NCBI GenBank assembly: GCA_964638945.1
Contig: CAZXCC010000001.1
Location: forward strand, 47,945 to 111,944
Length of the DNA: 64,000 nt
Direction: 5' to 3'
DNA from: an uncultured Veillonellaceae bacterium
GTDB lineage: Bacteria; Bacillota; Negativicutes; UBA1444
A program made the position numbers and the translations under genes. Under the pieces are notes generated by a model, which saw nothing but the letters and a program-made list of their open reading frames with translations, did not search any database and was not told the origin of the DNA. Below are positions 2,127-22,413 of this stretch, piece by piece (the first letter of the stretch is position 1; every line of letters begins with the position of its first letter).

Positions 2127-3725
2127 GTGGCTGATTTTCTGGAAACCCTGATCGAAGCGCTGCCTTTTATCGCACGCATTACAGGCGGATATGCGACAGT
2201 GACGGACAGGGACGGTGTCCGCATACGGACGTATGATTCCGAGGGGCAGGAAATAGTGGAGTGGCGGGGAACGGTCTTTGAGCTGGCGAGGGAAGTTGGT
2301 CAGAACGGCCAGGTCCGGATCGGGCCTTCCCAGATCATTGCCGATGCCGAGGCTTGGGCATTGCCGCTGGGTGAATATGTGATCGCCTCCAGCAATCTGG
2401 AAAGAGTGATGAGGGAGAAGGAGCTGCTTGAATCCTTGAAGTCGGCACTACCTTTTATTGCAAGGGTTGCCGGGGGGGAAGCCGTACTGTTCGACGAGGA
2501 AGGAAAACGCACTGCCAGTGTCGGATATGATGGGCAACCCAATACAAACTTTATCGGGCGAGTCAGTAAAGCTGCTCAAAAAGCCATGAAAACGGGTCGC
2601 CCGGTGATTGGGGAATCCATGTCGGCAAATGGTGCAATTGGTGTGAGGATTCCCATCACTCATAGTTTTGGTCTGGGGTTCAATAATGAGCATGGCGTGA
2701 TGCGGCAGCAGAAATTGATGGAGGAAGTAAAAAAATTTCAGTACGCACGCTATAATTTCACAGACATTGTCGGGAACAGCGAAGCGATTCAAAAAGTGAA
2801 AAGCATGGCCAGTTTTGTAGCAAATGGCATATCATCGATATTGATTCTGGGAGAAACCGGAACAGGAAAAGAGATGTTTGCCCAGTCCATCCATAATTGT
2901 AGCGAACGGCGCAGTAAACCTTTTATTGCGGTCAACTGCGGAGCTTTGCCGGCATCGATAATCGAAAGTTATCTGTTCGGTTATGTTGAGGGAGCGTTTA
3001 CGGGAGCCAAAAAGAGCGGCAGTCCGGGCGCTTTTGAGCAGGCAAACGGCGGAACCATTTTTCTCGACGAGCTTGGGGAAATGGATTTCAATTTACAGAG
3101 CAAATTGCTTAGAGTGCTGCAAGAACGGGAAGTAACGAGGATTGGCGGTTCAAAGCCGCTGCACATCGATGTACGGGTTATCGCTTCAACAAACCGTGAT
3201 TTGAGTGAAATGGTTACGGCGAACAAATTTCGCCAGGATCTATATTACAGGCTCAATGTTGTACAGCTGAAAATCCCGCCTCTGCGGGAACGGACCGAAG
3301 ATATTCCGGCTCTGGTCAAGGGAATGATTGACCGATTTAACAATATGCTTGGCAAATTTGTCGTGGGGATATCCGAAGAATGTATCGCCAAACTTTGTGA
3401 ACACAAATGGCCGGGCAATGTGCGGGAATTGCAGAATTGCGTCGAATATGCCATGAACATTATCGGCATCAATGATAGTGTTATCGAAGTGGAGCATTTG
3501 CCGCATAATATACAAAGTATCGTTCAAAACGGCAAAATTCAGACTGTCGGTACGTTGGCGGAAACGGTATTGCTGGCGGAAAAAGAGGCCATCCTAAAAG
3601 CGCTGGCATTCACCGGCCATGCGAAAAAGGAGACGGCCAGGCTCCTTGGCATCAGTACGACCACGCTATGGCGCAAAATGATTGAAACCGGCATTGAAAA
3701 TGCGCCTCCGCTTCCGGAAAAATGA
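2127..3725 (+). CDS. sigma-54-dependent transcriptional activator (NtrC-family EBP); N-terminus is two tandem copies of an uncharacterised roughly 95-aa sensory domain, then AAA+ sigma-54 interaction domain and C-terminal Fis-type HTH
   Basis: GETGTGKE Walker A, GAFTGA sigma-54 contact motif, C-terminal HTH; internal repeat ALPFIARITGG.. / ALPFIARVAGG..; GTG start with GAGGTG RBS. Confidence 0.85.
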   Translation: MADFLETLIEALPFIARITGGYATVTDRDGVRIRTYDSEGQEIVEWRGTVFELAREVGQNGQVRIGPSQIIADAEAWALPLGEYVIASSNLERVMREKELLESLKSALPFIARVAGGEAVLFDEEGKRTASVGYDGQPNTNFIGRVSKAAQKAMKTGRPVIGESMSANGAIGVRIPITHSFGLGFNNEHGVMRQQKLMEEVKKFQYARYNFTDIVGNSEAIQKVKSMASFVANGISSILILGETGTGKEMFAQSIHNCSERRSKPFIAVNCGALPASIIESYLFGYVEGAFTGAKKSGSPGAFEQANGGTIFLDELGEMDFNLQSKLLRVLQEREVTRIGGSKPLHIDVRVIASTNRDLSEMVTANKFRQDLYYRLNVVQLKIPPLRERTEDIPALVKGMIDRFNNMLGKFVVGISEECIAKLCEHKWPGNVRELQNCVEYAMNIIGINDSVIEVEHLPHNIQSIVQNGKIQTVGTLAETVLLAEKEAILKALAFTGHAKKETARLLGISTTTLWRKMIETGIENAPPLPEK

Positions 3726-3771
3726 TCGTGGGAAAACTGCCGGTACAATGAGTTGACAGGAGTGGATACGG

Positions 3772-4440
3772 GTGAAAGACAACAAGACTTCCCAATCAGC
3801 GGTGCTTTATGATGCCAATGTTCATAAAACAATTCCGCGGTACCATACTTTCCATGATGAGACGATTGAACTGATCCGAATTTTGAGACCGGCTCCGGCG
3901 GCATGGCTGGATACCGGCTGCGGTACAGGAACACTCATCGCAAAAGCAGCAGGTTGCTTTCCTGGAGTGAAATTTGTCGCAGCGGATCCGTCATCGGCGA
4001 TGCTGGAGCAGGCCAGGGAAAAGTTGGCCGGATTGGCGGTGGAATATGTGGAGGCCGGCACCGAGGCGTTTGCCGTGAAGAACAGATTTGATGTCATTAC
4101 TGCAATAATGTCGCACCACTACTTGAATTTCCCAGAGAGGGATACGGCAACGAAAAATTGCTTTGATGCACTGAACGAGGGGGGAGTGTATGTCACATTT
4201 GAAACCATACGGCCTTTTTCGGAACGCGGTACTGAAGTAGGGCTGCAAAGGTGGCGTACACATCAACTGTCAAACGGCAAAGCGCCTGAAGAAGTCGATA
4301 AGCATATCAGCCGTTATGGTATGGAATTATTGCCGATCTCGATTGATAATCATCTCGAATTGCTTCGCCGGGCAGGTTTTTCCACTGTGGAAATCTTGTG
4401 GGTATCTGGTTTACAGGCAGGGTTCTACGCTGTCAAATAG
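3772..4440 (+). CDS. class I SAM-dependent methyltransferase
   Basis: motif I LDTGCGTGTL; 222 aa. Confidence 0.7.
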   Translation: MKDNKTSQSAVLYDANVHKTIPRYHTFHDETIELIRILRPAPAAWLDTGCGTGTLIAKAAGCFPGVKFVAADPSSAMLEQAREKLAGLAVEYVEAGTEAFAVKNRFDVITAIMSHHYLNFPERDTATKNCFDALNEGGVYVTFETIRPFSERGTEVGLQRWRTHQLSNGKAPEEVDKHISRYGMELLPISIDNHLELLRRAGFSTVEILWVSGLQAGFYAVK

Positions 4441-4459
4441 CCGGAACGTGAGCGTGCTA

Positions 4460-4490
4460 TTGACAAAAAGACGGTACTCGTGATAATGTT
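4460..4490 (+). promoter_or_regulatory. possible sigma-A promoter (TTGACA, 16-17 nt, GATAAT with TG extension) followed by a GC hairpin at about 4510-4545
   Basis: pattern reading only. Confidence 0.3.
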
Positions 4491-4595
4491 CGAAATTATA
4501 ACAGTGGCAATGGAGCCGCCGCAAATGCGGTGGCTTTTGCTTTTTATTTTGCGAACCGATGGCGAAAATGTGCTGAGGGGAATTGTCTGATGCAT

Positions 4596-4611
4596 CGGCA
4601 CGATTCTTGCA
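4596..4611 (+). promoter_or_regulatory. sigma-54 (-24/-12) promoter CGGCACG-ATTC-TTGCA upstream of the soluble MCP-like gene
   Basis: GG at 4597-4598 and GC at 4609-4610 with canonical spacing; matches TGGCACG-N4-TTGCW except the first base. Confidence 0.6.
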
Positions 4612-4707
4612 ATAAATCTTGCTGAAACAAAATTTTGTAAAACGGCTACCGGAGATGGAGGCGATCTCCAATCTGGATTTTTTGAAAACAGGGGGGAAGT
4701 TGATACA

Positions 4708-5547
4708 ATGGCAACGTCGGAAGAAATTCTGGAAAGGTTGGTCCATGCACTACCGCTTATTCAGGGGGCTTTGCACGAAGATACAGGGGTTACTTTGACG
4801 AACCGGGAAAATTTTTTGTTCTACAAAGCAGGAAAAAATTTGGACCTAAAGGTTCCGCCCAATGCACAGGTAAAGCCGGGCAGCGGAGTGCACAGGGCCA
4901 TGCAGGAACGACGGCGCGTGGCGCTGCGCTTTGACAGCACGTTATATGGATTGCCTTACACATCTGTAGCGATTCCGGTTTATGATGAATCGCATGAAGT
5001 GATCGGAGCCATTGCCATTACTCAACCTGTGGAACTGCAGGAAAGCATCAAGCGGATGTCCGGCGGATTGTTGGACAATATCAGCGCTTTGGCTGCTACG
5101 AGCGAAGAGATTTCCGCCCAGACGGAAGAGATTGCGGCGTCCAGCCGTGTATTGACGGATATGGCGCATGAGTCACAAAAAAGAGCACAACAAACCGACC
5201 AAGTGTTGGGGTTGATTCGGAACATTGCCAGTCAGACAAATCTTTTGGGTTTGAATGCTGCTATTGAGGCAGCCCGTGTCGGGGAGCAAGGCCGCGGATT
5301 CGGCGTTGTTGCGGAGGAAATAAGAAAATTGGCTGGAACCAGCGCCCAGTCAATCAGCGAAGTGACTTCAATTATTGCAGCGATTCGTAAAGACAGCGAG
5401 GCCACTTACAGCCAGATGAATGAAATGCAGAGTGCAATCGGACAAATTGCCACTGCCGTTAGCCAAATTGCTGAAACAGTGCAAAAAATAACACAAAATG
5501 CATCGCAACTGGATAAGATTGCGGAAGCAATGAATGGGCAAGAATAG
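4708..5547 (+). CDS. soluble methyl-accepting chemotaxis protein-like transducer (no TM, no HAMP), N-terminal uncharacterised sensory domain shared with the sigma-54 activator; YfmS-like architecture
   Basis: MCP signalling core [34 protein letters not shown]; N-terminal about 110 aa alignable to 2127..3725 repeats and to 54187..55032. Confidence 0.8.
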
Positions 5548-5772
5548 TATTATTTCAAAAATGAAATGCGAAGGAATATTTTAAAGGAAATAAAGAATGC
5601 AAAAATAAGCTTTGGTTGATTCTTTTTCTGCAAAACTCGAGAATGAAGATTTGCTGCTGCAAATATGTGAGGGGCAAAAAGCAGGAATAATGCAGGTAGT
5701 GATGAAGAAGACCATTGTGATTATTGCTGTGTTTCTCTTTCCTCAGGGATAAATTCGGTGCGTTGCAATAAT

Positions 5773-5786
5773 GAAATGCGCATTTC
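5773..5786. promoter_or_regulatory. perfect 14-bp palindrome GAAATGCGCATTTC about 160 bp upstream of the sigma-54 promoter; candidate enhancer (UAS) for the sigma-54 activator; a half-site-like TGAAATGCGAAGG lies at about 5560
   Basis: read directly; position typical for EBP binding sites. Confidence 0.4.
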
Positions 5787-5933
5787 TGTTTTGAAATGAA
5801 AATGATAAGTTGACCGCTGAAAATTGATGAAAAAATAAGTGGAATTCCAACCTTGCAATACAATCATACGGCGGACGAATGGCAATGAAGCCTGGCAAGA
5901 GATCTTGCGGGCTTTTTTGTTTGGAAGGCATAT

Positions 5934-5949
5934 TGGCACGGCTCTTGCA
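5934..5949 (+). promoter_or_regulatory. sigma-54 promoter TGGCACG-GCTC-TTGCA, near-perfect consensus, immediately upstream of the RBS/start of the first nicotinate cluster gene
   Basis: GG 5935-5936, GC 5947-5948; exact match to TGGCACG-N4-TTGCW. Confidence 0.75.
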
Positions 5950-5976: not shown

Positions 5977-6450
5977 TTGAATGTTGAAATAACTTGTAGG
6001 ATTAATGGCAAAGAAATTAACATGACGGTTCGGCCTGAAATGCTGTTGGTGGATTTCCTGCGTGATGAACTTGGTTTGACAGGAACGAAGAGAGGCTGCG
6101 GGATCGGTGAATGTGGCGCTTGCACGGTCATAATGGATGGACGCACAGTGGCATCTTGTATTGTTCCTGCCGCTTCGATCGACGGTTCGGATATTTTAAC
6201 GGTGGAAGGGCTGTCTGACGGAGAAAAACTCCATGTCCTTCAGCAGGCTTTCATCGACCATGGCGCAGTACAGTGCGGTTTTTGCACACCTGGGATGCTC
6301 TTGTCGGCAAAGGCTTTATTGGACAAAAATCCAAAACCGACACGGGAAGAGATCCGAGTGGCCATCTCTGGCAATGCATGCCGCTGTACAGGCTATACCA
6401 AAATTGTTGATGCGGTAGAATCAGTGGCAAAACTGGGAGGTGACGTTTGA
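5977..6450 (+). CDS. ndhS: nicotinate dehydrogenase (xanthine dehydrogenase family) 2Fe-2S small subunit
   Basis: two 2Fe-2S motifs CGIGECGAC and CGFCTPG; TTG start 8 nt after GGAGGTG; the ATG at 5839 would include the sigma-54 promoter and is judged less likely. Confidence 0.75.
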   Translation: MNVEITCRINGKEINMTVRPEMLLVDFLRDELGLTGTKRGCGIGECGACTVIMDGRTVASCIVPAASIDGSDILTVEGLSDGEKLHVLQQAFIDHGAVQCGFCTPGMLLSAKALLDKNPKPTREEIRVAISGNACRCTGYTKIVDAVESVAKLGGDV

Positions 6451-7721
6451 TGAACAATGCCGGCATTGGCAGTTCGGTTTTGAAGTCGGATGCGCTTGCC
6501 AAGGTGACGGGGCAGGCGTTATTCGCTGCTGACATGAAACGTCCGGGCATGTTGTTTTGCAAAGTGGTTCGCAACGAAAGCAAAATCGCGCATGCCGTGA
6601 TCGAAGGGATAGATGTGGCGGAAGCAGCGGCAACTCCTGGGGTTGTGGCAGTTTTTACGGCAAAAGACATTCCTGGAACGAACGGCGTCGGCATCATCCT
6701 GAAGGATGAACCGGTGCTCGCGGGGGAAAAAGTCCGTCGCCATGGCGACGCATTGGCTCTTGTCGTGGCTGAAACAGAAGAGATAGCAATTGCAGCAGGC
6801 AAGAAGGTTCGTGCCACATTGAAAGAACTGCCGGCGTATTTTGATCCCATAGCTGCGATGGCTCCTGACGCAGTCAAGATTCACGGATCATCCAATGTGC
6901 TGACCCTGCGCAAGGTTCGCAAGGGGGATGTAGAGGCGGCTTTTGCTGCTTCAAAGGTGATCATTGAAAGACGGTACACTACGCAGACGATTGAGCATGC
7001 CTATATAGAACCGGAAGCGGGATTGGCCGAATACGACGGCAGAATGGTGACGGTTTGGGTTTCAACGCAGAACGCACATTTTGACCGCAAAGAAGTGGCT
7101 CGCAACCTGGGGCTGGGAGTACATCAGGTTCGAATCGTTCAGGCTGTCACCGGCGGCGGGTTTGGCGGCAAACTTGATATTTCGGTGCAATGTTATCTGG
7201 CCCTGGCAGCTTACAAAACCGGGCGCCCGGTGAAAATGGTCTGGCAACGGGAAGAATCCATGATTGCATCAGCCAAGCGGCATCCGTACCTGATCGATTA
7301 CAAGACAGGCGCCGATGCGGACGGCAGGTTGCTGGCCGTGAAAGCAAATATCATTGGCGACTCAGGTGCCTACGCGTCTTATGGGCCGGCTGTGCTGACA
7401 AGGGCCGCGGTTCATGCTACCGGTCCCTATGAAGTGCCCAATGTCCATGTGGACGCATATGCCGTATACACAAATAACCCCCAGGCCGGAGCCATGCGTG
7501 GCTTTGGCGTGCCGCAGATGGCTTTTGCGCATGAGACGCAGATGGATCTTCTGGCGGAAGAACTGGGCCTCTCCCCCTTCGAAGTTCGCAGGAGGAATGT
7601 ATTGCGTCCGGGGGGGACGACTGCGACGGGCCAAGTGCTGGAACATAGTGTGGGCATCGGAATGACGCTGGAACAAGCCTGTAAGGAAGCAGAAAAATTG
7701 TTCCGCACGGGGGTACTGTAA
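6450..7721 (+). CDS. ndhL: nicotinate dehydrogenase molybdopterin subunit, N-terminal half (NdhL-like)
   Basis: aldehyde oxidase/xanthine dehydrogenase a/b hammerhead region; ATGA overlap with ndhS stop. Confidence 0.75.
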   Translation: MNNAGIGSSVLKSDALAKVTGQALFAADMKRPGMLFCKVVRNESKIAHAVIEGIDVAEAAATPGVVAVFTAKDIPGTNGVGIILKDEPVLAGEKVRRHGDALALVVAETEEIAIAAGKKVRATLKELPAYFDPIAAMAPDAVKIHGSSNVLTLRKVRKGDVEAAFAASKVIIERRYTTQTIEHAYIEPEAGLAEYDGRMVTVWVSTQNAHFDRKEVARNLGLGVHQVRIVQAVTGGGFGGKLDISVQCYLALAAYKTGRPVKMVWQREESMIASAKRHPYLIDYKTGADADGRLLAVKANIIGDSGAYASYGPAVLTRAAVHATGPYEVPNVHVDAYAVYTNNPQAGAMRGFGVPQMAFAHETQMDLLAEELGLSPFEVRRRNVLRPGGTTATGQVLEHSVGIGMTLEQACKEAEKLFRTGVL

Positions 7722-8774
7722 ATGAAGAAACGTGGTACAGGAATCGGTTGCATGTGGTATGGCATCGGCAATACGGGGCTTCCCAATCCGGCAGCGGCGT
7801 TTGTCGAATGGCTGGATGACGGGACGGCCAATTTGCTCGTCGGATGCGCGGATATAGGACAGGGATCGGATACCGCACTTGCCCAGATTGTGGCGGAAGA
7901 GCTCGGCATCAGTGCTGAAAACGTCATGGTCACCTCGGCTGACACGATGGTCACCCCTGAAGGCGGCGCTACAAGCGCCAGCCGACAGACTTACATTTCC
8001 GGCAACGCAGCACGCCTGGCGGCCAAGGAAGCCAAGCAGGTGGCGATTGCGGAAGCGAAAGAGATGTTGAAAACAACCGGCAATGTTGATTTTTCCCGTG
8101 GGTTCGTCTTGGTAGACGGAAAACCGGGAGAGCTTTCTGTGAAAGAAGTATTGGGCAGCTGTCGCATGAAGGGAAAACTCACGCTGGGACACGGGTGGTT
8201 CAATCCGGCGACAACAGGACTGGATACTGCCACGGGTGTAGGTTCGCCTTACGGAACATACGCTTTTGCCACGCAGGTGGCTGAAGTGGAAGTGGATACG
8301 GAAACCGGAAAAGTCGAAGTTCTTCGCCTCGTAGCTTCCCATGACGTTGGAAAGGCCATCAATCCCCAACTGGTCCAGGCGCAGATCGAGGGTGGCAGTG
8401 TCATGGGGGTCGGCTATGCCTTACTTGAGGAGATTAACGTTTCTGGCGGCCGCATTACAAATCCCAACTTTGATGCGTATCTTTTGCCCACTGCACTGGA
8501 TACGCCTGAGATTTATTCGTTTATCGTCGAAGATCACGAACCCACCGGCCCTTTCGGGGCGAAAGGCGTCGGGGAACCTGCTCTGATTCCAACTGCGGCG
8601 GCGATTGCCAATGCCGTGTACGACGCAATCGGTGTCAGAATCTATTCCCTGCCGATTTCTCCGGAACGGGTGCTCCAGGCGCTGGCAGAGAAAAAGAATG
8701 AGCAAAAGCCTGGCAACTGCAGTGGACCGGTATATGCGATTTGTTCAATCGGTGTGGAAGAAAGCAAGCCCTAA
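7722..8774 (+). CDS. ndhM: nicotinate dehydrogenase molybdopterin subunit, C-terminal half (NdhM-like)
   Basis: xanthine dehydrogenase family Mo-binding C-terminal region; clean TAA-ATG junction with GGGGGT RBS, mirroring the split 50+37 kDa L/M subunits of the E. barkeri enzyme. Confidence 0.75.
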   Translation: MKKRGTGIGCMWYGIGNTGLPNPAAAFVEWLDDGTANLLVGCADIGQGSDTALAQIVAEELGISAENVMVTSADTMVTPEGGATSASRQTYISGNAARLAAKEAKQVAIAEAKEMLKTTGNVDFSRGFVLVDGKPGELSVKEVLGSCRMKGKLTLGHGWFNPATTGLDTATGVGSPYGTYAFATQVAEVEVDTETGKVEVLRLVASHDVGKAINPQLVQAQIEGGSVMGVGYALLEEINVSGGRITNPNFDAYLLPTALDTPEIYSFIVEDHEPTGPFGAKGVGEPALIPTAAAIANAVYDAIGVRIYSLPISPERVLQALAEKKNEQKPGNCSGPVYAICSIGVEESKP

Positions 8775-8822
8775 TATCCGGGAGGCAGATTCCCGGCAAT
8801 CATGATAAGGAGAGTGACACAA

Positions 8823-9995
8823 ATGGCAAACCTAGTAATTACCAACATCGGCACAATTGTTTCAGGGGACATCGATTCTCCGATTCTCCAGGGTAACACC
8901 ATCGTTATCAAAGACGGAAAAATTGATGCCGTGGGAAATGCGGAACTGGTAGACGCTCTCAAAAAAGAATCGGTCGAATTCAAAACCATTGACGCAGGTG
9001 GTATGACAGTGACCCCGGGTCTGATTGATTCGCATGTTCATCCGGTCATCGGCGACTATACACCGAGGCAAAAGATGTCGGATTTTATCGACAGTTCCAT
9101 TCATGGAGGCGTGACTTCGATGATCTCCGCAGGGGAATGTCATACGCCGGGCCGTCCGACGGATCCGGCCGGTGTAAAAGCTCTGGCCATTCTGGCGAAA
9201 AAATCATTCGCAAATCTTAAGCCGGGCGGTGTGAAAGTTCATGCCGGCTCCGTGATTCTTGAAAAAGGGCTGACGGAAGCTGATTTTGCTGAGATGGCGG
9301 CAGCGGGTGTCAATATCGTCGGCGAGGTGGGCCTGGGTTCGGTAAAGAAGCCTGAAGATGCTGCGCCCATGGTGGCCTGGGCCAAGAAGCACAATATGAA
9401 AGTCATGATGCACACGGGCGGCACTTCGATTCCAGGTAGCTCCACAGTATCTGCAGATGACGTGATCAAAACGGACCCGGACGTAGTATCTCACATCAAT
9501 GGCGGCCCTACGGCGGTTTCATTGAAAGAGGTCGACAGGTTGCTTGACGAGACGCAGTTTGCATTGGAGATCGTACAGTGCGGCAACCCGAAAGTGGCTG
9601 ACTATGTGGCGCGCAAAGCGGCTGCCAAGAACCAGATGCATCGGATTATTTTCGGCAACGATGCTCCTTCCGGCACCGGCGTGATTCCTCTGGGGATTCT
9701 TCGAAACATCTGCCAGATTGCCAGCATATCTGAGATTCCTGCAGAAAAAGCCATTGCGATGGCTTCGGGAAACACTGCCCGTACTTATGGATTGAACACC
9801 GGAGTGATTGCGCCGGGAAAAGACGCGGATCTTGTGATTTTGGACACACCGATGGGCTCGGTCGGCAAGAATGCGCTGGAAGCGATTGAAGCCGGAGATT
9901 TGCCTGGAGTCGCGTTGGTACTTGTTGATGGAGTGATCAAGGTAAACAAGAGCCGCAATACTCCGCCGACAGTGGGAAAAGTAACGGGTGCCTAA
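8823..9995 (+). CDS. ena: enamidase-like amidohydrolase (1,4,5,6-tetrahydro-6-oxonicotinate amidohydrolase)
   Basis: amidohydrolase metal motif GLIDSHVHP; 390 aa, matching the about 386-aa E. barkeri enamidase; cluster context. Confidence 0.7.
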   Translation: MANLVITNIGTIVSGDIDSPILQGNTIVIKDGKIDAVGNAELVDALKKESVEFKTIDAGGMTVTPGLIDSHVHPVIGDYTPRQKMSDFIDSSIHGGVTSMISAGECHTPGRPTDPAGVKALAILAKKSFANLKPGGVKVHAGSVILEKGLTEADFAEMAAAGVNIVGEVGLGSVKKPEDAAPMVAWAKKHNMKVMMHTGGTSIPGSSTVSADDVIKTDPDVVSHINGGPTAVSLKEVDRLLDETQFALEIVQCGNPKVADYVARKAAAKNQMHRIIFGNDAPSGTGVIPLGILRNICQIASISEIPAEKAIAMASGNTARTYGLNTGVIAPGKDADLVILDTPMGSVGKNALEAIEAGDLPGVALVLVDGVIKVNKSRNTPPTVGKVTGA

Positions 9996-10016
9996 GGAAA
10001 CGGGAGGTTTGGAACA

Positions 10017-11525
10017 ATGATCATTGTCAAGAAGGAACTCTGCAAGGCCTGCGGCTTATGTGTCAAGAACTGTCCGGCAAGCGCGGTCAAAGTCATAGAC
10101 AAATTGGCCGTGGTGCAGGAGAATTGCGTCAGTTGCGGCGTCTGCGTCCGTGTCTGCCCTTTTCAGGCAATCATGCGCGAAGTGGAAATTGCTGCAGGCG
10201 CAGTTTCTTGCCGTTCATGCCCGGTCCAATGCGAAATCAAGGCAGGGTTTGAAGGTGCATGCAAACGCTATAGCAACATCAACGGAAAATTGGTGCGAAA
10301 CCGTGAACTGGTACTGGAAAATACCCGGTCTCAGGTGCCGGACCGGACAATCCCGGATAAGCCTCTGATTACTGCCGTAGGTGCGGGTACAGAGTATCCC
10401 TGCTGCCGTCCGGCCCCTCATATTGTCGGTGAGACGATCGACGGCATCGATGTGGTGACCGTAGTGACGGAAGCTCCGCTCAGTTACAGCGGTATCAAGG
10501 TAAAGATTGACGCCAACCGCCACATCGGCGAAGAAGGCGCGAAGATATTCAGGGACGGTGCGCTCGTCGGCATGGTGGACACCGAAGAGTATGGATCAAA
10601 GATGATTTACATCGGCGGAGCGAATATTCTGAGCGGGAAGAATGGATTTGCCGCGGCCCGGACCATTGTCGAACTGGCGAATGAAGAACGAGTGACACTG
10701 CAGGTCGAAAAAGGAAGCAAGCTGGAACTGCAGGTCGGTCACGCACCAATCATTGACGGTGTTGCCGAAAAGAAAATGCGTGTTGGTTGCGGCAGTGCAA
10801 CCGTCGGTATGTTTGCACGTATCATGAGTCAGGCAGTGGATGAAGCCATCGTGCTGGACCATCATGTTATTGGACTTCTGTCGGAACACCGGGCGGGTGA
10901 AGAGGTTGGAATGCGCTGGAGCGGCGTTGTTCCAAACGGCAGAAAAAGTACAAGGGGTAGATATTTCGGGGAGCATGGGCATGGTTGGGGCGGCACTCAT
11001 ATCGAAAAGCCTCTGGATGCAGTCAAGTCTGTAGATATGAGCATCGCCAGACAGGGCATGAAAATATTGGTTACCGAAACTACCGGGCAAAAAGGCGCAT
11101 TGCTGGAAGTGCAAGCGGATGGCAGTGTGCGCGAGATTCCGATGACTCCGGATGCTCAGGCCGCTGTCAACATGATTGTCGACAATTGTGAGGAAGCCAG
11201 GGTATCTGCCGTTTATGTCGGCGGAACCGGCGGCAGTGCGAGAGCAGGCGTGACGACCTATCCCATCAAGCTTTCACGCGCCGTGCATGCAGGGGAAGCA
11301 AAGTTGACAATCGGCGGGGCCATGGCCTACATCCTTCCGGGAGGCGGCATAAATTTTCTGGTGGATGTGGAAAAAGTGGAACCGAAGGCTTTTACCTGGG
11401 TTCCGACTCCTGCAACAGTAGCGCCGGTTGAATATACGATGACCCGCCGCAAATATGAAGAAATCGGTGGACATGTCGAGTCCATCAAACCCCTCTCCAC
11501 GCTCAAAAAGGCGAACAAAAAATGA
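10017..11525 (+). CDS. hnr: 6-hydroxynicotinate reductase-like protein with N-terminal 2x[4Fe-4S] ferredoxin domain
   Basis: CKACGLCVKNCP and CVSCGVCVRVCP motifs plus additional Cys clusters; position and size consistent with Hnr of the E. barkeri pathway. Confidence 0.6.
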   Translation: MIIVKKELCKACGLCVKNCPASAVKVIDKLAVVQENCVSCGVCVRVCPFQAIMREVEIAAGAVSCRSCPVQCEIKAGFEGACKRYSNINGKLVRNRELVLENTRSQVPDRTIPDKPLITAVGAGTEYPCCRPAPHIVGETIDGIDVVTVVTEAPLSYSGIKVKIDANRHIGEEGAKIFRDGALVGMVDTEEYGSKMIYIGGANILSGKNGFAAARTIVELANEERVTLQVEKGSKLELQVGHAPIIDGVAEKKMRVGCGSATVGMFARIMSQAVDEAIVLDHHVIGLLSEHRAGEEVGMRWSGVVPNGRKSTRGRYFGEHGHGWGGTHIEKPLDAVKSVDMSIARQGMKILVTETTGQKGALLEVQADGSVREIPMTPDAQAAVNMIVDNCEEARVSAVYVGGTGGSARAGVTTYPIKLSRAVHAGEAKLTIGGAMAYILPGGGINFLVDVEKVEPKAFTWVPTPATVAPVEYTMTRRKYEEIGGHVESIKPLSTLKKANKK

Positions 11526-12355
11526 TCAGGGAATTGGGGCCGGGCAAGGTTGCGCTTGATTTTGGTCCTACCCAGATGAATATTCATGTTTCCGGCGACA
11601 ATGCCGGTACCGGCATTGCGAAAGAAGCAGCGGATTACGCAATAAAGCTGGTTACGGAACTGGCGGGTTTTAAAACGATTGCAGCCAGGCCGCAAAGCGA
11701 AATCGGCACGCTGGAGGATCTGCCTGTCGTGCTCCAGAGAATGATCGAGTCTGTCAGAAAAACCGGGGATACGGATCTGACCCCCATGGCTGCAGTTGCC
11801 GGAACTCTATCGGACATGACTGCAGACTGGCTTTTTGCCAGAGGCGTCTCGAAGGTTATCGTCAACAATGGCGGCGATATTGCGATAAGACTCTCGGGAG
11901 AACAACGAGCCACGGTTGGCATTGCACCGGCCTTGGGCATGCCGCCGACCCACGTTCTGCATATCGGTGCAGCCGATGGCATCGGCGGTGTGACAACAAG
12001 CGGTTCAGGCGGACGAAGTTTCACCAAAGGAATTGCCACCGCCGCCACCGTTGCGGCAAAAACGGCGTCGATAGCCGACGCCTGCGCCACAAGCATCGGC
12101 AACGCAACCTTTTCTCCCCATCCATCCATCCGCATGGCTAGAGCGGAAGAAATCGATCCATTGACTGACATCGCAGGGCACTGGGTGGTTCGGGACGTGG
12201 GAGAACTGCCGCAGGAAACGGTTCAGGCAGCTCTTGAAAACGGATGGATGAGGGCAAAAAGCTATTTGGACAGAGGGATCATCAAAGGATGCGTTATCTT
12301 TATCGGACAAGCTGGAGTGGTGCTGCCGGAAGGGCTAGTGACTCCCTTGCCGTAA
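11522..12355 (+). CDS. conserved hypothetical protein, Gly/Ala-rich, in nicotinate cluster (possible Hnr accessory)
   Basis: ORF 277 aa translationally coupled (ATGA) to hnr; no motif recognised. Confidence 0.45.
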   Translation: MIRELGPGKVALDFGPTQMNIHVSGDNAGTGIAKEAADYAIKLVTELAGFKTIAARPQSEIGTLEDLPVVLQRMIESVRKTGDTDLTPMAAVAGTLSDMTADWLFARGVSKVIVNNGGDIAIRLSGEQRATVGIAPALGMPPTHVLHIGAADGIGGVTTSGSGGRSFTKGIATAATVAAKTASIADACATSIGNATFSPHPSIRMARAEEIDPLTDIAGHWVVRDVGELPQETVQAALENGWMRAKSYLDRGIIKGCVIFIGQAGVVLPEGLVTPLP

Positions 12356-12376
12356 AAATTAAGAGGAGGGTATATT

Positions 12377-12961
12377 ATGGAACTGGAAATTCGTAAGATT
12401 GTAACTGTTGTGGAAGAAACCTGCAAGGAAGCCGGACGCAAACTGGAAAAACCGACGCGCAAAGCTGCGGCGATGGCTGTTGTTGCCAATCCGTATGCGG
12501 GGCAATATGTGGAAGACCTGAATCCGCTGATTGATGCCTGCCTGCCGCTCGGAGAGCTCTTGACCAAACGTGCAGTGGAAGCATTGGGCATTGCGCCTGA
12601 AAAAGTAGAAAGCTATGGCAAGGCGGCTATCGTAGGCATAAATGGCGAACTGGAGCATGCCGCGGCGCTGCTGCATCCCAAACTCGGGACACCGATCCGC
12701 GATAATGTCGGCGGAGGAAAGGCAATTCTGCCTTCAACCAAAAAAGTCGGTGGACCAGGAACGGCGATCGATGTATCACTCGGATTCAAAAACGCCGCAT
12801 ACGTGCGGACTCACTTCGATGCAATGGAAGTACGGATTGCCGATGCTCCACGGGACAATGAAATTGTCCTTATCGTTGCTGTGACTGATTCGGGCCGTCC
12901 GCTGGCGCGTGTGGGCGGATTGACTGTGGATCAGGTCAAAGGCGAAGACGGATTGCGCTAA
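12377..12961 (+). CDS. amino-acid-synthesis (AA_synth/DUF1185) family protein, function unknown
   Basis: N-terminal MELEIRKIVTVVEE... and length about 190 aa typical of that family (from memory). Confidence 0.5.
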   Translation: MELEIRKIVTVVEETCKEAGRKLEKPTRKAAAMAVVANPYAGQYVEDLNPLIDACLPLGELLTKRAVEALGIAPEKVESYGKAAIVGINGELEHAAALLHPKLGTPIRDNVGGGKAILPSTKKVGGPGTAIDVSLGFKNAAYVRTHFDAMEVRIADAPRDNEIVLIVAVTDSGRPLARVGGLTVDQVKGEDGLR

Positions 12962-12974
12962 ACAAAAAATATAG

Positions 12975-13007
12975 TTGCTAGAACAAGGAAATTCCTTGTT
13001 CTAGCAA
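12975..13007. other. perfect 15-bp stem / 3-nt loop hairpin (TTGCTAGAACAAGGA aat TCCTTGTTCTAGCAA) between cluster genes; U-run lies on the minus-strand side
   Basis: base pairing verified by eye, 15/15 pairs. Confidence 0.6.
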
Positions 13008-13024
13008 AATTGGGGGGAAGAAAG

Positions 13025-13912
13025 GTGCGTATCGGATTTATCGGTATCGGAGCCATGGGAAAACCGATGGCGCTGAACCTTCTAAAGGCTGGCCATGAAC
13101 TGTATGTTTTTGATGTCGTGGCAGCTGCGGTGGCAGACATGGTTGCTCAGGGGGGGCAGGCATGCACGTCGCCCAAAGAGCTTGCGCAGAAGACGGAAGC
13201 AGTTATTACAATGCTGCCCAATGCCAAGATTGTGGAAAGTACACTGACAGGTGAAAACGGGCTTTTAGCCGGCTCACGTCCCGGACAGGTTTTCATCGAC
13301 ATGAGCAGTGTCTCCGCTGGCAGTACGAAACTGATGGCCAAACTCGCCGGTGAAAAAGGGGTCGGCTATGTGGATGCACCGGTAAGCGGCGGGGTGGCTG
13401 GCGCTACGGCTGGAACACTGACCATCATGGTTGGGGGAAGTGTGGATGACGTTGCGAAAGTACAACCCATACTGCAGGCTATGGGGAAAAACATCCACCA
13501 TGTCGGAGAAGTGGGTGCGGGTGATTCCATCAAGGTCGTCAACAATCTGCTGCTCGGGATCAATATGGCAGCGGTTGCTGAAGCGTTGGTGCTCGGAGTG
13601 AAATCCGGCCTGTCGCCCCAGGTCATGCTTGATATCATCAAGGGGAGCTCCGGCCGAAGTTATGCGTTGGAGGCGAAGACTCCGGGCTTTATCCTGAAAA
13701 ATAATTTTGCAGCCGGATTTGCCATCGACCTGCAGTACAAGGATCTGGAACTGGCGGCCGAAACGGCAAAAAGTCTGGGAATGCCGCTTCCGCTGGGATC
13801 CATGGCGCAACAGATTTTTGAAATGGCCAGGGCCAAGGGACTGGGGCGCGAGGATATTTCAGCAGTGATCAAGGTGTGGGAAGAACTGGTCGGCGTGCAA
13901 GTGAGGGAATAG
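13025..13912 (+). CDS. hgd: 2-(hydroxymethyl)glutarate dehydrogenase-like (3-hydroxyisobutyrate dehydrogenase family, NAD-binding)
   Basis: GFIGIGAMGKPMALNL Rossmann motif; about 296 aa; cluster context. Confidence 0.75.
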   Translation: MRIGFIGIGAMGKPMALNLLKAGHELYVFDVVAAAVADMVAQGGQACTSPKELAQKTEAVITMLPNAKIVESTLTGENGLLAGSRPGQVFIDMSSVSAGSTKLMAKLAGEKGVGYVDAPVSGGVAGATAGTLTIMVGGSVDDVAKVQPILQAMGKNIHHVGEVGAGDSIKVVNNLLLGINMAAVAEALVLGVKSGLSPQVMLDIIKGSSGRSYALEAKTPGFILKNNFAAGFAIDLQYKDLELAAETAKSLGMPLPLGSMAQQIFEMARAKGLGREDISAVIKVWEELVGVQVRE

Positions 13913-13919
13913 AAGGTAG

Positions 13920-15344
13920 GTGCAGGGGATGGAGAAGATATATAAGGAATTAAAAGAAAAGAATTTGTTGCCGGGCCAGCTGACTATCGGTGACTGTATT
14001 GGTGTGGCCAAAACAGTCGGAACGAGTGTTGGTGAAGTGATCATTGCCGAAGCGATGGAAGTCGGCAAAATGACCCGGCAGGAAGTGCTGTCGGCCGTGA
14101 TGGCAAGTTTTTCTCACAATCTGTATGCGATAGAAATCGGTACAACAACTGGTTCCAGCTTTCTGATGGGCAACGCGGGGCGGGAACTGACACAGGGAGC
14201 TGCCCCGCAGATTGTGGAAGATACTTTCCTGAACAAGGTGCTGGGATTTACGATTGGGGCACAGGTGGGAAACCATTCGGTCGGTTTGCAGCCTTGCGCC
14301 GGAACTGGCGATTCCTGTACGTATTCGGGTTTTGTCAAAGCCATGTTGGAAGAGGTGGCCGATCAGGAGCTGATTGCCCGTGTTGCGGCTGTCATGCTGA
14401 AAATCGGTACGATATTTCGCGTGGGTAAAACATCAACCGGCTGTAATATGGAAGGATTTGGTGCAGGTTCCGCTGCTTCTGCGGCAGCGTTCATCGAACT
14501 AGCCGGCGGTACACCGGAACAGATGGAGAAGGCCATTGTCCTGGCCTTGTCACCAACGATCGCGGTTCCTTGTACCCCCAGGGTCATGGTGGCCGGAATT
14601 TGCGCCACGCATATCGGCGGTGGCGTAATGATCGGCAAACTGGCGGCGCAGCTTGCGATGCATACCTCCATCCCCATCACCGTTCCTGCAGATGTGATGA
14701 TCGCCATGGCGGCAGCCGTTCATCCGATATCCGCCAAACATGTGGTTCCCACAGTGATTCAGTACATGGAGCCTTTTTTCAAAACCAACCTGGCGGTAGA
14801 AGGCTATATTTCTCCGGAAATAAAGGCGGAGGAAAAGGAGCGGATCGATCAGACTATTGGTCATGCTCTTGCTGAAGCCCGAGAACTGGCCCGCAAATCC
14901 AACCCGATCGTCAAACCGTTCAGTGAGGCGGTTGTAGGCGGAAGCAGCCAAGCTGTCGGTTCCCCGACGAACGCGGCCCGGATTGCGCATTTCCTTGCCA
15001 AAGGCGAAGTGAAGAAAGTCAAAATCGAGCTGTATCCCGAATTATTTGCCAGACGCGGCATCAATGTGCCGGGCATCCTGATGGCGGCAATTTACGGCGC
15101 AGGGACGGATAACAGCAAACTGTATCGTGAAGTCATGGACAAAGTGAAGGCTGCGGGAATCGAAGTGGAAATCCTGCAGGCCAGCGAATCTCAGATGCAG
15201 CGGATTACCGTCGAAGCCAGTGAAAAGAACGGGATGGTGCAGACTCTCAATCGTGGCGGAGCCCGCCTGGTTCTGCAAAAAGCATCCGATTTGGCAGAAG
15301 CATTCCGGATTGCCAAGGACCTTGGCATTGAAACGGTCGAGTAG
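13920..15344 (+). CDS. hmd: 2-(hydroxymethyl)glutarate dehydratase-like (Fe-S L-serine dehydratase family, fused beta+alpha)
   Basis: serine dehydratase-like single-chain architecture 474 aa; cluster context. Confidence 0.7.
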   Translation: MQGMEKIYKELKEKNLLPGQLTIGDCIGVAKTVGTSVGEVIIAEAMEVGKMTRQEVLSAVMASFSHNLYAIEIGTTTGSSFLMGNAGRELTQGAAPQIVEDTFLNKVLGFTIGAQVGNHSVGLQPCAGTGDSCTYSGFVKAMLEEVADQELIARVAAVMLKIGTIFRVGKTSTGCNMEGFGAGSAASAAAFIELAGGTPEQMEKAIVLALSPTIAVPCTPRVMVAGICATHIGGGVMIGKLAAQLAMHTSIPITVPADVMIAMAAAVHPISAKHVVPTVIQYMEPFFKTNLAVEGYISPEIKAEEKERIDQTIGHALAEARELARKSNPIVKPFSEAVVGGSSQAVGSPTNAARIAHFLAKGEVKKVKIELYPELFARRGINVPGILMAAIYGAGTDNSKLYREVMDKVKAAGIEVEILQASESQMQRITVEASEKNGMVQTLNRGGARLVLQKASDLAEAFRIAKDLGIETVE

Positions 15345-15355
15345 GAGGAACGGTC

Positions 15356-16564
15356 GTGAATTTTATAGAAAAATATCTGGCTGCTGCGGCCGGTCTTGAA
15401 AAGGTAAGTGTAGGGCAAGATTTGCGCTGCCGGGTGGATCTGGCACTCAGCCATGACGTTACTGCGCCGATAGCCATTCAACAATTCGAACAGATTGGCA
15501 TCGACCATGTGTTTGATCCAGCCAAAGTGGTCCTGGTCATCGACCACATCTTTCCCGCATCGACCGTCCAGGCCCGGACTTCACATTGGATCATGAAAGA
15601 TTTTGCAGCAAAATTCGGTGTCACACTGTATAGCAAAGGGGAAGGCGTCTGCCACCAGCTCCTGTCGGAGCGGCATCGTTTGCAACCGGGGCAGATTCTG
15701 GTGGGGGCAGACTCACACACTTGTACAGCCGGCGGTTACGGCGTGATCGGAATCCCTGTCGGATCGACGGAACTGGCTGCTGCGATGGCGACCGGTACAA
15801 TCGACCTGGAAGTTCCACCTGTGGTCGAAGTCTTCATGACTGGCGCCCTGAATCCCGGCGTAAGCGGCAAGGACATCGTTCTGAGCCTGATCAAGCGTTT
15901 CGGCGTCGATGGGCTTACAGACAAGGCGGTTGTTTTTACTGGCCCGGGAATTACAGGAATTTCTACAGGGGAACGGATGACGATCTGTAATATGGGAATC
16001 GAGATGGGCGCAATGATTGCCTGCTTTGGAGAGGAAACCAAAGCGGAGGATGTTGCGGAAAGCATTCCGCTGGAGCTGGAAAAACTGGTTCCGCTTGCGG
16101 CCTGTCCGCATTCACCAGCCAATGTTCGCCCGGTTTCCGACCTGAAGGACGTATCGGTAACCCAGGTGGTGGTCGGCAGTTGTACGAACGGGAGACTGAA
16201 CGACATGGAAAAAGTAGTCGATGTGCTCAGAAACCATAAAGTTCATCCCGATGTAAACTGTCTGATAATCCCCGCATCGAAAAACATACTGGATGCGATG
16301 GAAGAACAAGGCTGGTGCAAAATTTTGCGCGATGCCGGCGCTGTGGTGGCAAATCCCGGTTGTGGCCCGTGTTTTGGCGCTCATCAGGGATTGGGCACGG
16401 AACGCGACGTGATCGTATCCACCACGAATCGTAATTTCCCAGGACGAATGGGGCACCGGACCGCGAATATCTATCTTGCTTCACCCGCTACGGCAGCTGC
16501 ATCGGCGGTGACCGGGAAAATTACCGAACCAGGTTCGCTGGCAGCCGGAGGTGATTTGAAATGA
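15356..16564 (+). CDS. dmdA: dimethylmaleate hydratase large subunit (aconitase/LeuC family)
   Basis: GADSHTCTAGG aconitase-family motif; GTG start after GGAGG. Confidence 0.75.
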   Translation: MNFIEKYLAAAAGLEKVSVGQDLRCRVDLALSHDVTAPIAIQQFEQIGIDHVFDPAKVVLVIDHIFPASTVQARTSHWIMKDFAAKFGVTLYSKGEGVCHQLLSERHRLQPGQILVGADSHTCTAGGYGVIGIPVGSTELAAAMATGTIDLEVPPVVEVFMTGALNPGVSGKDIVLSLIKRFGVDGLTDKAVVFTGPGITGISTGERMTICNMGIEMGAMIACFGEETKAEDVAESIPLELEKLVPLAACPHSPANVRPVSDLKDVSVTQVVVGSCTNGRLNDMEKVVDVLRNHKVHPDVNCLIIPASKNILDAMEEQGWCKILRDAGAVVANPGCGPCFGAHQGLGTERDVIVSTTNRNFPGRMGHRTANIYLASPATAAASAVTGKITEPGSLAAGGDLK

Positions 16565-17055
16565 AGACAATCAAGGGTCGTGTATGGGTTTTTGACGACA
16601 ATGTGGATACCGATCAGATACTGCCTGGCTATGCAATGGCCGAGGCTGCAGCTTCCCTGGGACGTTTTGCCATGGCTGGCAGCAAGATTCCGGATTTCTC
16701 CGGCAAGGTTCAAGCCGGTGACATTATTGTCGCAGGCAAAAACTTCGGCTGCGGTTCCAGTCGGGAGCAGGCGCCGGTTGCGCTGAAACTGGCAGGAGTC
16801 AGTCTGCTCATTGCTCCCTCTTTTGCCCGGATTTTTCGCCGGAATTCCATCAATATCGGATTGCCGGTGATGTTGGGAGATATTCGGGAGGAAGTCAAAA
16901 CAGGAGATATTATCGAAGTGGATATTGAAAGCGGCGTTATTGTCGCTGCGGAGAGAAAACTGTCAGCTCAACCTCTGGCGCCCAATGTGCTGGCAACGGT
17001 GCGGGCCGGCGGCCTGATCAACCGTGTCCGCCAAGAACTGGGTATTGCAAACTGA
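16561..17055 (+). CDS. dmdB: dimethylmaleate hydratase small subunit (LeuD-like)
   Basis: 164 aa LeuD-like swivel domain; ATGA overlap with dmdA. Confidence 0.75.
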
Positions 17056-17080
17056 ACGATATACTGCAGGAGGAACCAAA

Positions 17081-18928: not shown

Positions 18929-20061
18929 TGGGAGATATGCGTCGAATTCCCTGTGTAATTTTGCGTGGCGGCACAAGCAAAGGGATATATCTGAAATCCA
19001 ACCATCTGCCTCAGGATAAAGAAGCGCGGGACAAAGTCATTCTGGAGATTTTTGGCAGTCCGGATGTCCGACAGATTGACGGATTGGCCGGCGCCGACCC
19101 ATTGACAAGCAAAGTGGCAATCATTGGGCCGTCCACTCATCCCGGAGCCGATGTGGACTATACCTTTGGCCAGGTCAGCATCAACGCACCCTATATTGAC
19201 TATTCCGGAAACTGCGGCAATATTTCGTCGGGGGTGGGGCCGTTTGCAATCGACGAAGGTTTTGTCGCTGCGACCGGTTCCATGACCACAGTTCGGATTC
19301 ACAACACCAATACGGGAAAAATTCTGATTGCCGAAGTTCCGACGGAAGACGGTCTCGCAAAAGTAAACGGCGACTGCAAGATCGACGGAGTACCCGGTAC
19401 CGGCGCCCAAATCATGATGGACTTTTCCGGCACGGCGGGTTCGGTGACAAACAAACTGCTGCCGACAGGCAATCCTGTTGATACCATCAACACCAGCGCC
19501 GGCCCTTTGCAAATTTCGATCGTGGATGTGTCCAATCCCTGCGTGTTTGTCAGAGCAAAAGATGTGGGCATGAAAGGCGGCGAGACGCCCCAGGAAGTCA
19601 ACGGGAATCCGAAATTGCTGGGTCTCATGGAGGAAATCCGTGCCCAGGCCTGCGTGATGATCGGCATGGCGCCGGATGTGGCTACCGCCACAGCCAAGAG
19701 CCCGGCATTCCCAATGGTGGCCTATGTGTCCCCTGCGGCGGATTATGTTGATTTCACCACAGGCAAGACCATCAGCAAAGATCAGATCGATTTCATTTCC
19801 CGCATGATGTTCATGCAGGTGCTGCACAAAACCTACCCGGGAACCGGCACGGCATGTACCGGCGCAGCGGCGAAAATTCCGGGAACAATTGTCAACGAAG
19901 CAATCCCGCATATTGACTCCATCAAGATTATCCGCATCGGGCATCCGGCAGGAGTGATCGAGATTGAGGCCGCTTTTGAAAAAGGCGAGTTGTCAAGGGC
20001 TGCGTTTGCCCGAACGGCAAGGCGCATTATGGAAGGGTACGTCTACGTCAGAAATTCGTGA
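18928..20061 (+). CDS. mii: 3-methylitaconate delta-isomerase (PrpF family)
   Basis: PrpF-like N-terminus IPCVILRGGTSKG; 377 aa; TAATG overlap with mgm. Confidence 0.75.
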   Translation: MGDMRRIPCVILRGGTSKGIYLKSNHLPQDKEARDKVILEIFGSPDVRQIDGLAGADPLTSKVAIIGPSTHPGADVDYTFGQVSINAPYIDYSGNCGNISSGVGPFAIDEGFVAATGSMTTVRIHNTNTGKILIAEVPTEDGLAKVNGDCKIDGVPGTGAQIMMDFSGTAGSVTNKLLPTGNPVDTINTSAGPLQISIVDVSNPCVFVRAKDVGMKGGETPQEVNGNPKLLGLMEEIRAQACVMIGMAPDVATATAKSPAFPMVAYVSPAADYVDFTTGKTISKDQIDFISRMMFMQVLHKTYPGTGTACTGAAAKIPGTIVNEAIPHIDSIKIIRIGHPAGVIEIEAAFEKGELSRAAFARTARRIMEGYVYVRNS

Positions 20062-20083
20062 TTCATACGGGGAGTGAAAAGAC

Positions 20084-21520: not shown

Positions 21521-21521
21521 C

Positions 21522-22394: not shown

Positions 22395-22413
22395 CCCTGG
22401 AAGGAGGCTGCAT

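Follow-up and report, generated by a model that had tools for sequence, protein, structure and literature searches.

A sigma-54 activator with an uncatalogued tandem sensor as the probable regulator of a nicotinate fermentation operon, and its soluble chemoreceptor neighbours from a separate sequence family

The sensor-type sigma-54 activators, or enhancer-binding proteins (EBPs), such as FhlA, NorR, NifA, AcoR, DhaR and PrpR, share a common layout, in which a sensor of GAF- or PAS-like fold is followed by an AAA+ domain carrying the GAFTGA motif and by a Fis-type helix-turn-helix (HTH), with palindromic upstream sites and a -24/-12 promoter ahead of the catabolic operon that they control. The sensor of FhlA is a tandem pair of GAF domains, and in NorR, FhlA, XylR/DmpR and DhaR the sensor keeps the AAA+ domain repressed as long as no effector is bound. 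A chemoreceptor gene may also lie within a catabolic cluster and be co-induced with it, as is the case for NahY on the naphthalene plasmid of Pseudomonas putida. The fermentation of nicotinate is encoded by a gene cluster of Eubacterium barkeri (Alhapel et al. 2006, as cited in PMC5746545), and Bacillus subtilis possesses an orphan soluble chemoreceptor, YfmS (PMC5137498, PMC7542364). No sigma-54 regulator of nicotinate fermentation was found in the searchable literature: reviews of Clostridiales sigma-54 regulons list no nicotinate regulator (PMC6615313), and a broader survey names nicotinate once, in the compound list of its genomic-context section (PMC3162934). We analyzed a 64,000-nucleotide stretch of DNA from an uncultured Veillonellaceae bacterium (contig CAZXCC010000001.1, positions 47,945 to 111,944), hereafter the window, which encodes an EBP with a tandem sensor, a nicotinate fermentation operon and two soluble proteins, MCP1 and MCP2, resembling methyl-accepting chemotaxis proteins (MCPs). 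We consider it probable that the activator runs the nicotinate operon and that the two MCPs belong to a separate soluble-receptor family. What is new here is an uncatalogued tandem sensor family with a newly defined regulon and operator, while a soluble chemoreceptor in a catabolic cluster is notable, not unprecedented.

The activator carries the Pfam domains Sigma54_activat (PF00158, E = 1.7e-69) at residues 214–381, AAA_lid_14 at 387–467 and HTH_8 at 484–518, with intact Walker A (GETGTGKE, residue 242), GAFTGA (residue 289) and Walker B (FLDE, residue 312) motifs. Together with its upstream sites and a -24/-12 target promoter, these features place it among the sigma-54 activators of the NtrC superfamily. 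An earlier note on this DNA, made from the sequence alone, had assigned the activator and the two MCPs to three open reading frames (ORFs), which are all present in the ORF listing (Table 1). The same note had read the N-terminal part of the activator as a tandem duplication, and indeed residues 5–100 and 101–197 align with 33% identity over 97 residues (BLASTP, E = 1.2e-14). Its statements that this sensor cannot be assigned to PAS, GAF, Cache, V4R or PrpR_N and is undescribed also hold: residues 1–205 are covered by no Pfam or NCBIfam model, gave no PAS, GAF-clan, PrpR_N or V4R match when scanned to E ≤ 1, and have no description in the searchable papers. The sole Pfam signal for the N-terminus is sCache_3_2 in module 2, at E = 0.057. 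The GAF-clan (CL0161) models give no match at E ≤ 1 in the window activator and seven aligned homologues; GAF_3 is reached by module 1 of one distant relative, P0140 (E = 3e-6, 27.9 bits), in which no individual stretch passes.

The AlphaFold2 (AF2) model of residues 1–211, built with the family alignment (pLDDT 90.4, pTM 0.73), shows an antiparallel sheet packed on helices, as expected for a GAF-like fold. Module 1 is modeled as a helix (residues 2–19), a β-hairpin (22–27 and 31–36), a short helix (52–60) and three strands (64–67, 75–81 and 84–89); the two modules are joined by a single 25-residue helix (91–115), and the helix 188–205 runs into the AAA+ domain. The fold resembles IclR-family effector domains, DhaR(N), SpoVT, the PDC/Cache domains of WalK and KinD, CitA and GAF domains, and sequence searches of the PDB with the profiles of the activator modules and of the MCP N-domains returned nothing meaningful. 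The modules are thus predicted, on the strength of the model, to adopt the PAS/GAF/Cache superfold and yet to stand apart from the catalogued sequence families. With about 100 residues each, they are shorter than a typical GAF domain and, in contrast to the sensors of the described EBPs, form a small family tied to anaerobic nicotinate fermentation. An exhaustive HMMER search of 1.84 billion representative proteins with the module profile returned 70 proteins, the credible ones, like all non-repeat matches examined with Pfam, being sigma-54 activators or fragments of them, usually with two matched stretches in about 520–545 residues; the family amounts to about 50 clusters at 50% identity in this collection. 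Activators of about 440 residues with one sensor module, the AAA+ domain and the HTH also exist (P0166 and P0169), so the duplication is not universal in the family. The long matches with many stretches in the tail of the search were rejected as relatives: P0156, which was checked, is a β-propeller repeat protein, and the others are very long proteins of the same pattern. Word-indexed searches with the isolated N-domains of activator and MCP gave 8 and 2 matches and under-represent both families, whose true size became apparent from the full-length MCP query and the genome scan. The tandem module is a candidate addition to the domain databases and offers a compact model of duplicated PAS/GAF-like domains that gate an AAA+ activator.

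The operon downstream of the activator comprises, according to its Pfam domains, a 2Fe-2S subunit, split molybdopterin subunits, an amidohydrolase, a ferredoxin-domain reductase, ApbE, AA_synth, an NAD-dependent dehydrogenase, a serine-dehydratase-like protein, aconitase-like large and small subunits, a B12-binding mutase, a PrpF-like isomerase, a MutL-like protein, a lyase resembling phosphoenolpyruvate (PEP) mutase and isocitrate lyase, an FAD subunit and a major facilitator superfamily (MFS) transporter. The corresponding gene names by domain content are ndhS/L/M, enamidase-like, Hnr-like, ApbE, AA_synth, Hgd, Hmd, DmdAB, Mgm, Mii, MutL-like, Dml, ndhF and MFS transporter. The complete enzyme set of the E. 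barkeri-type pathway, from a nicotinate dehydrogenase with split Mo-subunit (ndhF/S/L/M) through the PEP-mutase-like lyase, is therefore encoded together, the match being at the level of Pfam domains. The likely true start of ndhS is the TTG at 5977, which follows a GGAGG ribosome-binding site.

The operon is preceded by a perfect sigma-54 promoter element, and three palindromes lie 136–383 bp upstream of it. The 18-bp palindrome CATTTCA-N4-TGAAATG was found as a sequence common to the regions downstream of activator genes across loci: at two mismatches or fewer, 61 sites occur in the 14.8 kb that follow activator stop codons versus 26 in the other 694 kb, and within 350 bp after the activator stop the density is 110-fold higher, with sites in 31 of 40 loci. 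In the 64 kb of the window, the same threshold yields sites A, B and C only (shuffle mean 0.19), and these three also have the best position weight matrix (PWM) scores. Site A directly follows the MCP gene in loci L042 and L043 as well, and near-consensus sigma-54 promoters are present 3' of the activator gene in most related loci. The predicted operators and promoter are arranged as is usual for a sensor-type sigma-54 activator and the operon under its control. The proposal of the earlier note that the activator drives the adjacent nicotinate operon via sigma-54 is borne out by the perfect promoter, by the three conserved palindromes and by the same layout in about 30 other genomes, and the assignment of the activator as the probable pathway regulator of an E. 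barkeri-type nicotinate fermentation cluster is supported.

Table 1. Features of the window. Positions are numbered from the first nucleotide of the 64-kb stretch.
Feature	Position	Strand	Basis or remark
Sigma-54 EBP (activator), proposed nicotinate-pathway activator	2127..3725	+	532 residues, ORF listing
Sensor module 1, residues 1–99, α-β-β-α-β-β-β-α	2127..2423	+	AF2 model; no Pfam match
Sensor module 2, residues 100–205, duplicate of module 1 plus linker helix to AAA+ domain	2424..2741	+	
Activator AAA+ sigma-54 interaction domain, lid and Fis-type HTH	2766..3680	+	Pfam coordinates
Class I S-adenosylmethionine (SAM)-dependent methyltransferase	3772..4440	+	Pfam Methyltransf_25/12/11
Terminator-like GC hairpin and T-run 3' of methyltransferase gene	4515..4549	+	Sequence reading
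Sigma-54-type -24/-12 promoter of MCP1, CGGCACGATTCTTGCA	4596..4611	+	One mismatch to consensus
MCP1, soluble MCP-like protein	4708..5547	+	279 residues
MCP1 N-terminal cytoplasmic sensor domain, residues 1–107, Cache/GAF/IclR-effector-like	4708..5028	+	
MCP1 short signalling hairpin, about 170 residues, canonical tip motif	5029..5547	+	MCPsignal, E = 9e-30
Predicted upstream activator site A, TATTTCAAAAATGAAATG	5551..5568	.	One mismatch to CATTTCA-N4-TGAAATG; PWM 25.3, best in window
Predicted upstream activator sites B and C, CGTTGCAATAATGAAATG and CATTTCTGTTTTGAAATG	5761..5778 and 5781..5798	.	Palindrome match
Perfect sigma-54 promoter of nicotinate operon, TGGCACGGCTCTTGCA	5934..5949	+	Only zero-mismatch match in window
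Nicotinate fermentation operon, ndhS to MFS transporter, 17 ORFs	5977..24806	+	Pfam domain content
MCP2, second soluble MCP, family labelled YfmS by sources	54187..55032	-	281 residues; MCPsignal, E = 3e-25
Sigma-54-type promoter of MCP2, TGGCATAGTTTTTGCT	55102..55117	-	One mismatch

A scan of one genome per species retrieved 41 loci with a tandem-module activator, in hosts that include Sporomusa, Sedimentibacter, Proteiniborus, Tepidanaerobacter, Desulfosporosinus, Thermacetogenium, Brassicibacter, Desulfofundulus and Desulfovirgula. The co-occurrence for which the earlier note had called is clear: nicotinate-pathway genes lie within 10 kb in 30 of the 41 loci, the same genes being found 3' of the activator elsewhere, while five of the remaining 11 loci are cut by contig ends and six belong to a divergent Desulfovirgula/Desulfofundulus clade. 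E. barkeri itself was absent from the results of the genome scan with the activator motif. Sporomusa aerivorans (L005 and L017) and S. acidovorans (L011 and L022) have two activator paralogues each, one before the upper pathway (dehydrogenase, transporters and amidohydrolase) and the other before the lower pathway (Hgd, Hmd, Dmd and further enzymes), which suggests two effectors; in Tepidanaerobacter the activator directly precedes the lower pathway. Nicotinate fermentation is a textbook pathway, known for its B12 mutase and Mo-Se hydroxylase, for which a candidate activator, operator motif and promoter can now be offered in about 30 genomes.

Some observations on the distribution of the activator stand beside this. 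Two metagenome-assembled genomes of Planctomycetaceae (L040 and L041) carry a nearly complete nicotinate fermentation cluster together with a tandem-sensor activator of 35–37% identity, consistent with horizontal transfer or mis-binning. The divergent clade (L033–L039), with about 40% identity in the sensor, is exemplified by Desulfofundulus thermosubterraneus (L037, 5782–20067), where the activator gene lies between TRAP-transporter genes and genes for an HpcH-type lyase, a CoA ligase, a PrpD-family dehydratase, and FrhB-like and fumarate-reductase-like proteins; a matching palindrome is present 3' of the activator gene there too. In the window, an aromatic amino acid/histidine ammonia-lyase gene (514–2076) is situated directly upstream of the activator gene, as it is upstream in L043.

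The two MCPs lack a transmembrane segment, as the earlier note had it: their maximum 19-residue hydropathy is 1.1–1.4, versus 3.1 in the canonical transmembrane dCache-HAMP-MCP that the window also encodes (48524–50533). In both proteins, MCPsignal (PF00015) is confined to the C-terminal half, with the tip motif at residue 187 in MCP1 and 188 in MCP2; a single N-domain of the Cache/GAF/IclR-effector-like kind adjoins the short hairpin with no intervening domain in each of them, and the AF2 model of MCP1 residues 1–128 reaches a pLDDT of 92.3 and a pTM of 0.80. Their size of about 280 residues, the lack of a membrane segment and the C-terminal signalling hairpin are those of YfmS and other cytoplasmic MCPs, and a kinship with YfmS is suggested by source labels. 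A search with full-length MCP1 gave more than 5500 matches, of which the best 120 are nearly all full-length proteins of about 280 residues, many of them from Negativicutes; some carry the name YfmS in the sources, where numbered labels such as 'yfmS 9' point to genomes with many paralogues. The window contains no che genes. It is conceivable, though rather unlikely in our view, that MCP1 and MCP2 are not flagellar chemotaxis receptors and instead feed another Che-like pathway or have a regulatory role within sigma-54 regulons: their hairpin is very short, methylation-consensus sites ([ASTG][ASTG]xx[EQ][EQ]xx[ASTG][ASTG]) are few or missing, with one match at residue 136 of MCP1, family members repeatedly adjoin sigma-54 activator genes, and B. 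subtilis YfmS has no reported ligand (PMC5137498, PMC7542364), but the tip motif, the part of canonical receptors that binds CheA/CheW, is preserved, MCPsignal is matched with strong scores, and a canonical transmembrane MCP is encoded in the same window.

The earlier note went further and took the N-terminus of each MCP for a copy of the activator module, so that one ligand-sensing module would be wired to both outputs. In the strongest form of this idea, the repeats of the activator would be homologous to the N-termini of the MCPs, as versions of one ligand-binding module that are more closely related to one another than to any other PAS/GAF/Cache domain; they would recognize the same nicotinate-related ligand and feed both transcription and taxis. 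The N-termini of MCP1 and MCP2 are clearly related to each other, with 44% identity (BLASTP, E = 1e-41), but either activator repeat against either MCP N-terminus gave no BLASTP match or E ≥ 0.42, which leaves the pairwise similarity statistically unsupported. Profile comparison with hhalign yielded probabilities of 1.0% for 13 modules against 4 MCPs, 1.9% against 42 MCPs and 8.6% for the deepest profiles, of 148 modules and 117 MCPs. The register is identical in all three runs and the P value fell to 0.004 as the profiles deepened, both in favor of common descent, as is the fact that the two models match the same PDB entries. The order of secondary structure elements is also the same in the AF2 models of the activator modules and the MCP domain (N-helix, β-hairpin, short helix, three strands and C-helix), and the likeness seen by eye, 'ALPFIAR...' versus 'ALPLIQG...' ('aLPhI'), corresponds to the end of the N-helix, with its 'LPxI' in both, and the first β-hairpin of this fold. 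In the HMMER search of the 1.84 billion representatives with the module profile, however, the matches included not a single MCP of about 280 residues, although that family is abundant, and with the filters off neither family's profile hidden Markov model matched the other at E ≤ 1 among 4021 ORFs of 84 loci and the window.

The weak Pfam signals of the two domains also differ. When 42 MCP N-domains were scanned individually, sCache_3_3 was detected in 33, dCache_1 in 32, IclR_C in 21 and GAF in 9, all below the curated cut-offs, whereas the activator modules give essentially none of these signals. The IclR_C signal, found in half of the MCP N-domains, is accompanied by 10–17% identity, and the MCPs have no IclR-type winged-helix DNA-binding domain. 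MCP1 orthologues adjoin the activator in several genomes, which would suit a shared module, yet most activator loci have no adjacent MCP and MCP2 has no nicotinate link. On the evidence of these sequence and profile comparisons and of the models, the activator and MCP sensors are separate sequence families that have only the PAS/GAF/Cache-like superfold in common; a single homologous module serving both outputs is improbable. For annotation by eye there is a caution here, in that motif likeness between small α/β sensor domains does not prove a shared module.

Several observations weigh against our main reading of the activator and the two MCPs. The sigma-54 consensus at two mismatches or fewer is not enriched in the window (49 observed versus 40.6 expected), and the promoters were called from near-perfect matches together with their position and conservation. 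The paralogues at L024, L027, L014, L016 and L022 precede the lower pathway only, and the Desulfofundulus clade adjoins a cluster with TRAP transporter, lyase, CoA-ligase, PrpD and fumarate-reductase genes instead; the activator family may therefore sense carboxylates more generally, and a dicarboxylate from further down the pathway, in place of nicotinate, could be the effector. Upstream of the MCP1 promoter there is no strong palindrome: the strong site closest to it (5551–5568) is about 950 bp downstream, and the matches at 4088–4208 have weak PWM scores only. MCP2 carries no methylation-consensus site. For the window, the effector could be nicotinate, 6-hydroxynicotinate or a later acid.

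The mechanism that we propose builds on what is described above of the domains, the sensor duplication, the class of fold, the gene neighbourhood, the promoters and the operator motif, and we infer the ligand and the negative control by the sensor from analogy with the described EBPs. In the unliganded state, the sensor would keep the AAA+ ATPase off; once nicotinate, 6-hydroxynicotinate or a later carboxylate intermediate is bound, the ATPase would be released, a hexamer of the activator would assemble on the three 18-bp palindromes (5551–5798), and this hexamer would remodel the sigma-54 holoenzyme at the promoter 5934–5949, leading to transcription of the operon (5977–24806). That the tandem modules bind a protein instead of a small molecule, as DhaR(N) binds DhaK/DhaL, and so read the state of a pathway enzyme, an MCP or the methyltransferase, would suit modules unusually small for GAF domains but is very unlikely: the activator is kept with nicotinate genes in about 30 genomes, most of them devoid of the MCP and the methyltransferase, so that only a core pathway enzyme could serve as the fixed protein partner, and the small-molecule-binding effector domains of the IclR type score as well or better in the fold comparison.

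Orthologues and close paralogues of MCP1 (57–95% identity) are part of nicotinate clusters on eight or more independent contigs, in the gene orders EBP-methyltransferase-MCP-ndhS in Anaeroselena agilis (L042), EBP-MCP-methyltransferase-MCP-ndhS in L043, which has two MCP copies, EBP-MCP-ndh in L066 and L082, Dml-MCP in L069 and L072, and MFS-MCP-methyltransferase in L070. Most activator loci have no MCP, and in the lineage of the window the methyltransferase and MCP1 genes look like an insertion between the activator gene and the operator region. The -24/-12 element of MCP1 occupies the same place in L042 (TGGCACGATTATTGCG) and L043 (AGGCATGCTTCTTGCA), where an equivalent hairpin is also found ahead of the MCP promoter. 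A palindrome that would serve the MCP1 or MCP2 promoter from upstream was sought and discarded, no site there scoring above 10. MCP1 is a nicotinate-cluster-specific paralogue of the abundant soluble chemoreceptors labelled YfmS by the sources, with a conserved predicted sigma-54 promoter of its own. Judging from this context, it most likely makes taxis inducible, in response to a cytoplasmic metabolite and in connection with nicotinate catabolism. NahY-type receptors, whose genes lie in or beside a catabolic operon as that of MCP1 does, likewise suggest taxis co-induced with a pathway; they are transmembrane proteins with a periplasmic ligand, whereas MCP1 is cytoplasmic, would report an intracellular substrate or intermediate, has a sigma-54 promoter and belongs to strict anaerobes.

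The methyltransferase accompanies the nicotinate-cluster MCP in L042, L043, L070 and L072. Across the window, these four loci and L022, its gene stands in the orders EBP-methyltransferase-MCP, EBP-MCP-methyltransferase-MCP, MFS-MCP-methyltransferase and Dml-MCP-methyltransferase, and in one case no MCP is present. The enzyme may act on a pathway metabolite or on the receptor, and it might belong to a receptor-activator module.

MCP2 has a different setting. In the window (54187–58070) and around its orthologues in L044, L045, L047, L048 and L061, synteny is conserved with divergently transcribed genes for an ABC transporter (binding protein, ATPase and permease) and with convergent glycosyltransferase (GT39 and GT2) and GtrA genes, not with nicotinate genes, and elements like the MCP2 promoter are present 88–119 bp upstream in the orthologous loci L044, L048 and L061. 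By its gene neighbourhood, MCP2 is a paralogue beside an ABC transporter and appears to have no nicotinate link. The connection of nicotinate with a chemotaxis-type output proposed in the earlier note is hence plausible for MCP1, given its in-cluster orthologues and sigma-54 promoter, but does not extend to MCP2. The end of the GT39 ORF (54248) overlaps the 3' end of MCP2 (54187) by about 60 bases.

Other paralogues of the soluble receptor sit in other catabolic clusters, often beside a sigma-54 activator of the PAS type or an NtrC-type two-component pair: with an acyl-CoA dehydrogenase/electron transfer flavoprotein/FixCX cluster in L083 and L050, in a PAS-activator operon with BKACE, GntP and CoA-transferase genes in L084, and with a thiolase and a PAS activator in L073. 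A sigma-54 promoter was detected 70–132 bp upstream of 8 of the 38 metagenomic family members found by the N-domain motif, versus about 0.5 expected from the information content of the promoter pattern. In contrast to YfmS, then, the family found here is expanded, with many paralogues per genome, lies in catabolic clusters and is often under sigma-54 promoters. These settings suggest metabolism-coupled taxis in strict anaerobes and could give a functional context to orphan soluble receptors labelled YfmS. We offer as a tentative idea that Negativicutes and related anaerobes follow a rule of one catabolic operon, one soluble receptor, in which dozens of receptors of about 280 residues would each be placed in a different, often sigma-54-dependent cluster and be co-induced with it, MCP1 and the activator having converged on the same intracellular metabolite via unrelated versions of one fold; if this were true, the cells would swim towards a compound only while metabolizing it. 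The JGI names of seven family entries (P0019, P0023, P0028, P0038, P0041, P0043 and P0082) are mostly 'transcriptional regulator of acetoin/glycerol metabolism', the COG name of AcoR, with one 'IclR family regulator', labels that hint at a likeness of the MCP N-domain to the sensors of AcoR-type activators.

Elsewhere in the window, an ORF of 955 residues (39386–42253) shows a weak, below-cut-off match to a twin-arginine (TAT) signal and no other Pfam domain. A second sigma-54 activator (30575–32062) was considered as a carrier of either sensor and set aside, as it contains an ordinary PAS domain instead; its gene lies between an upstream glutamate dehydrogenase gene and downstream genes for oxidoreductase, aldehyde dehydrogenase and binding protein.

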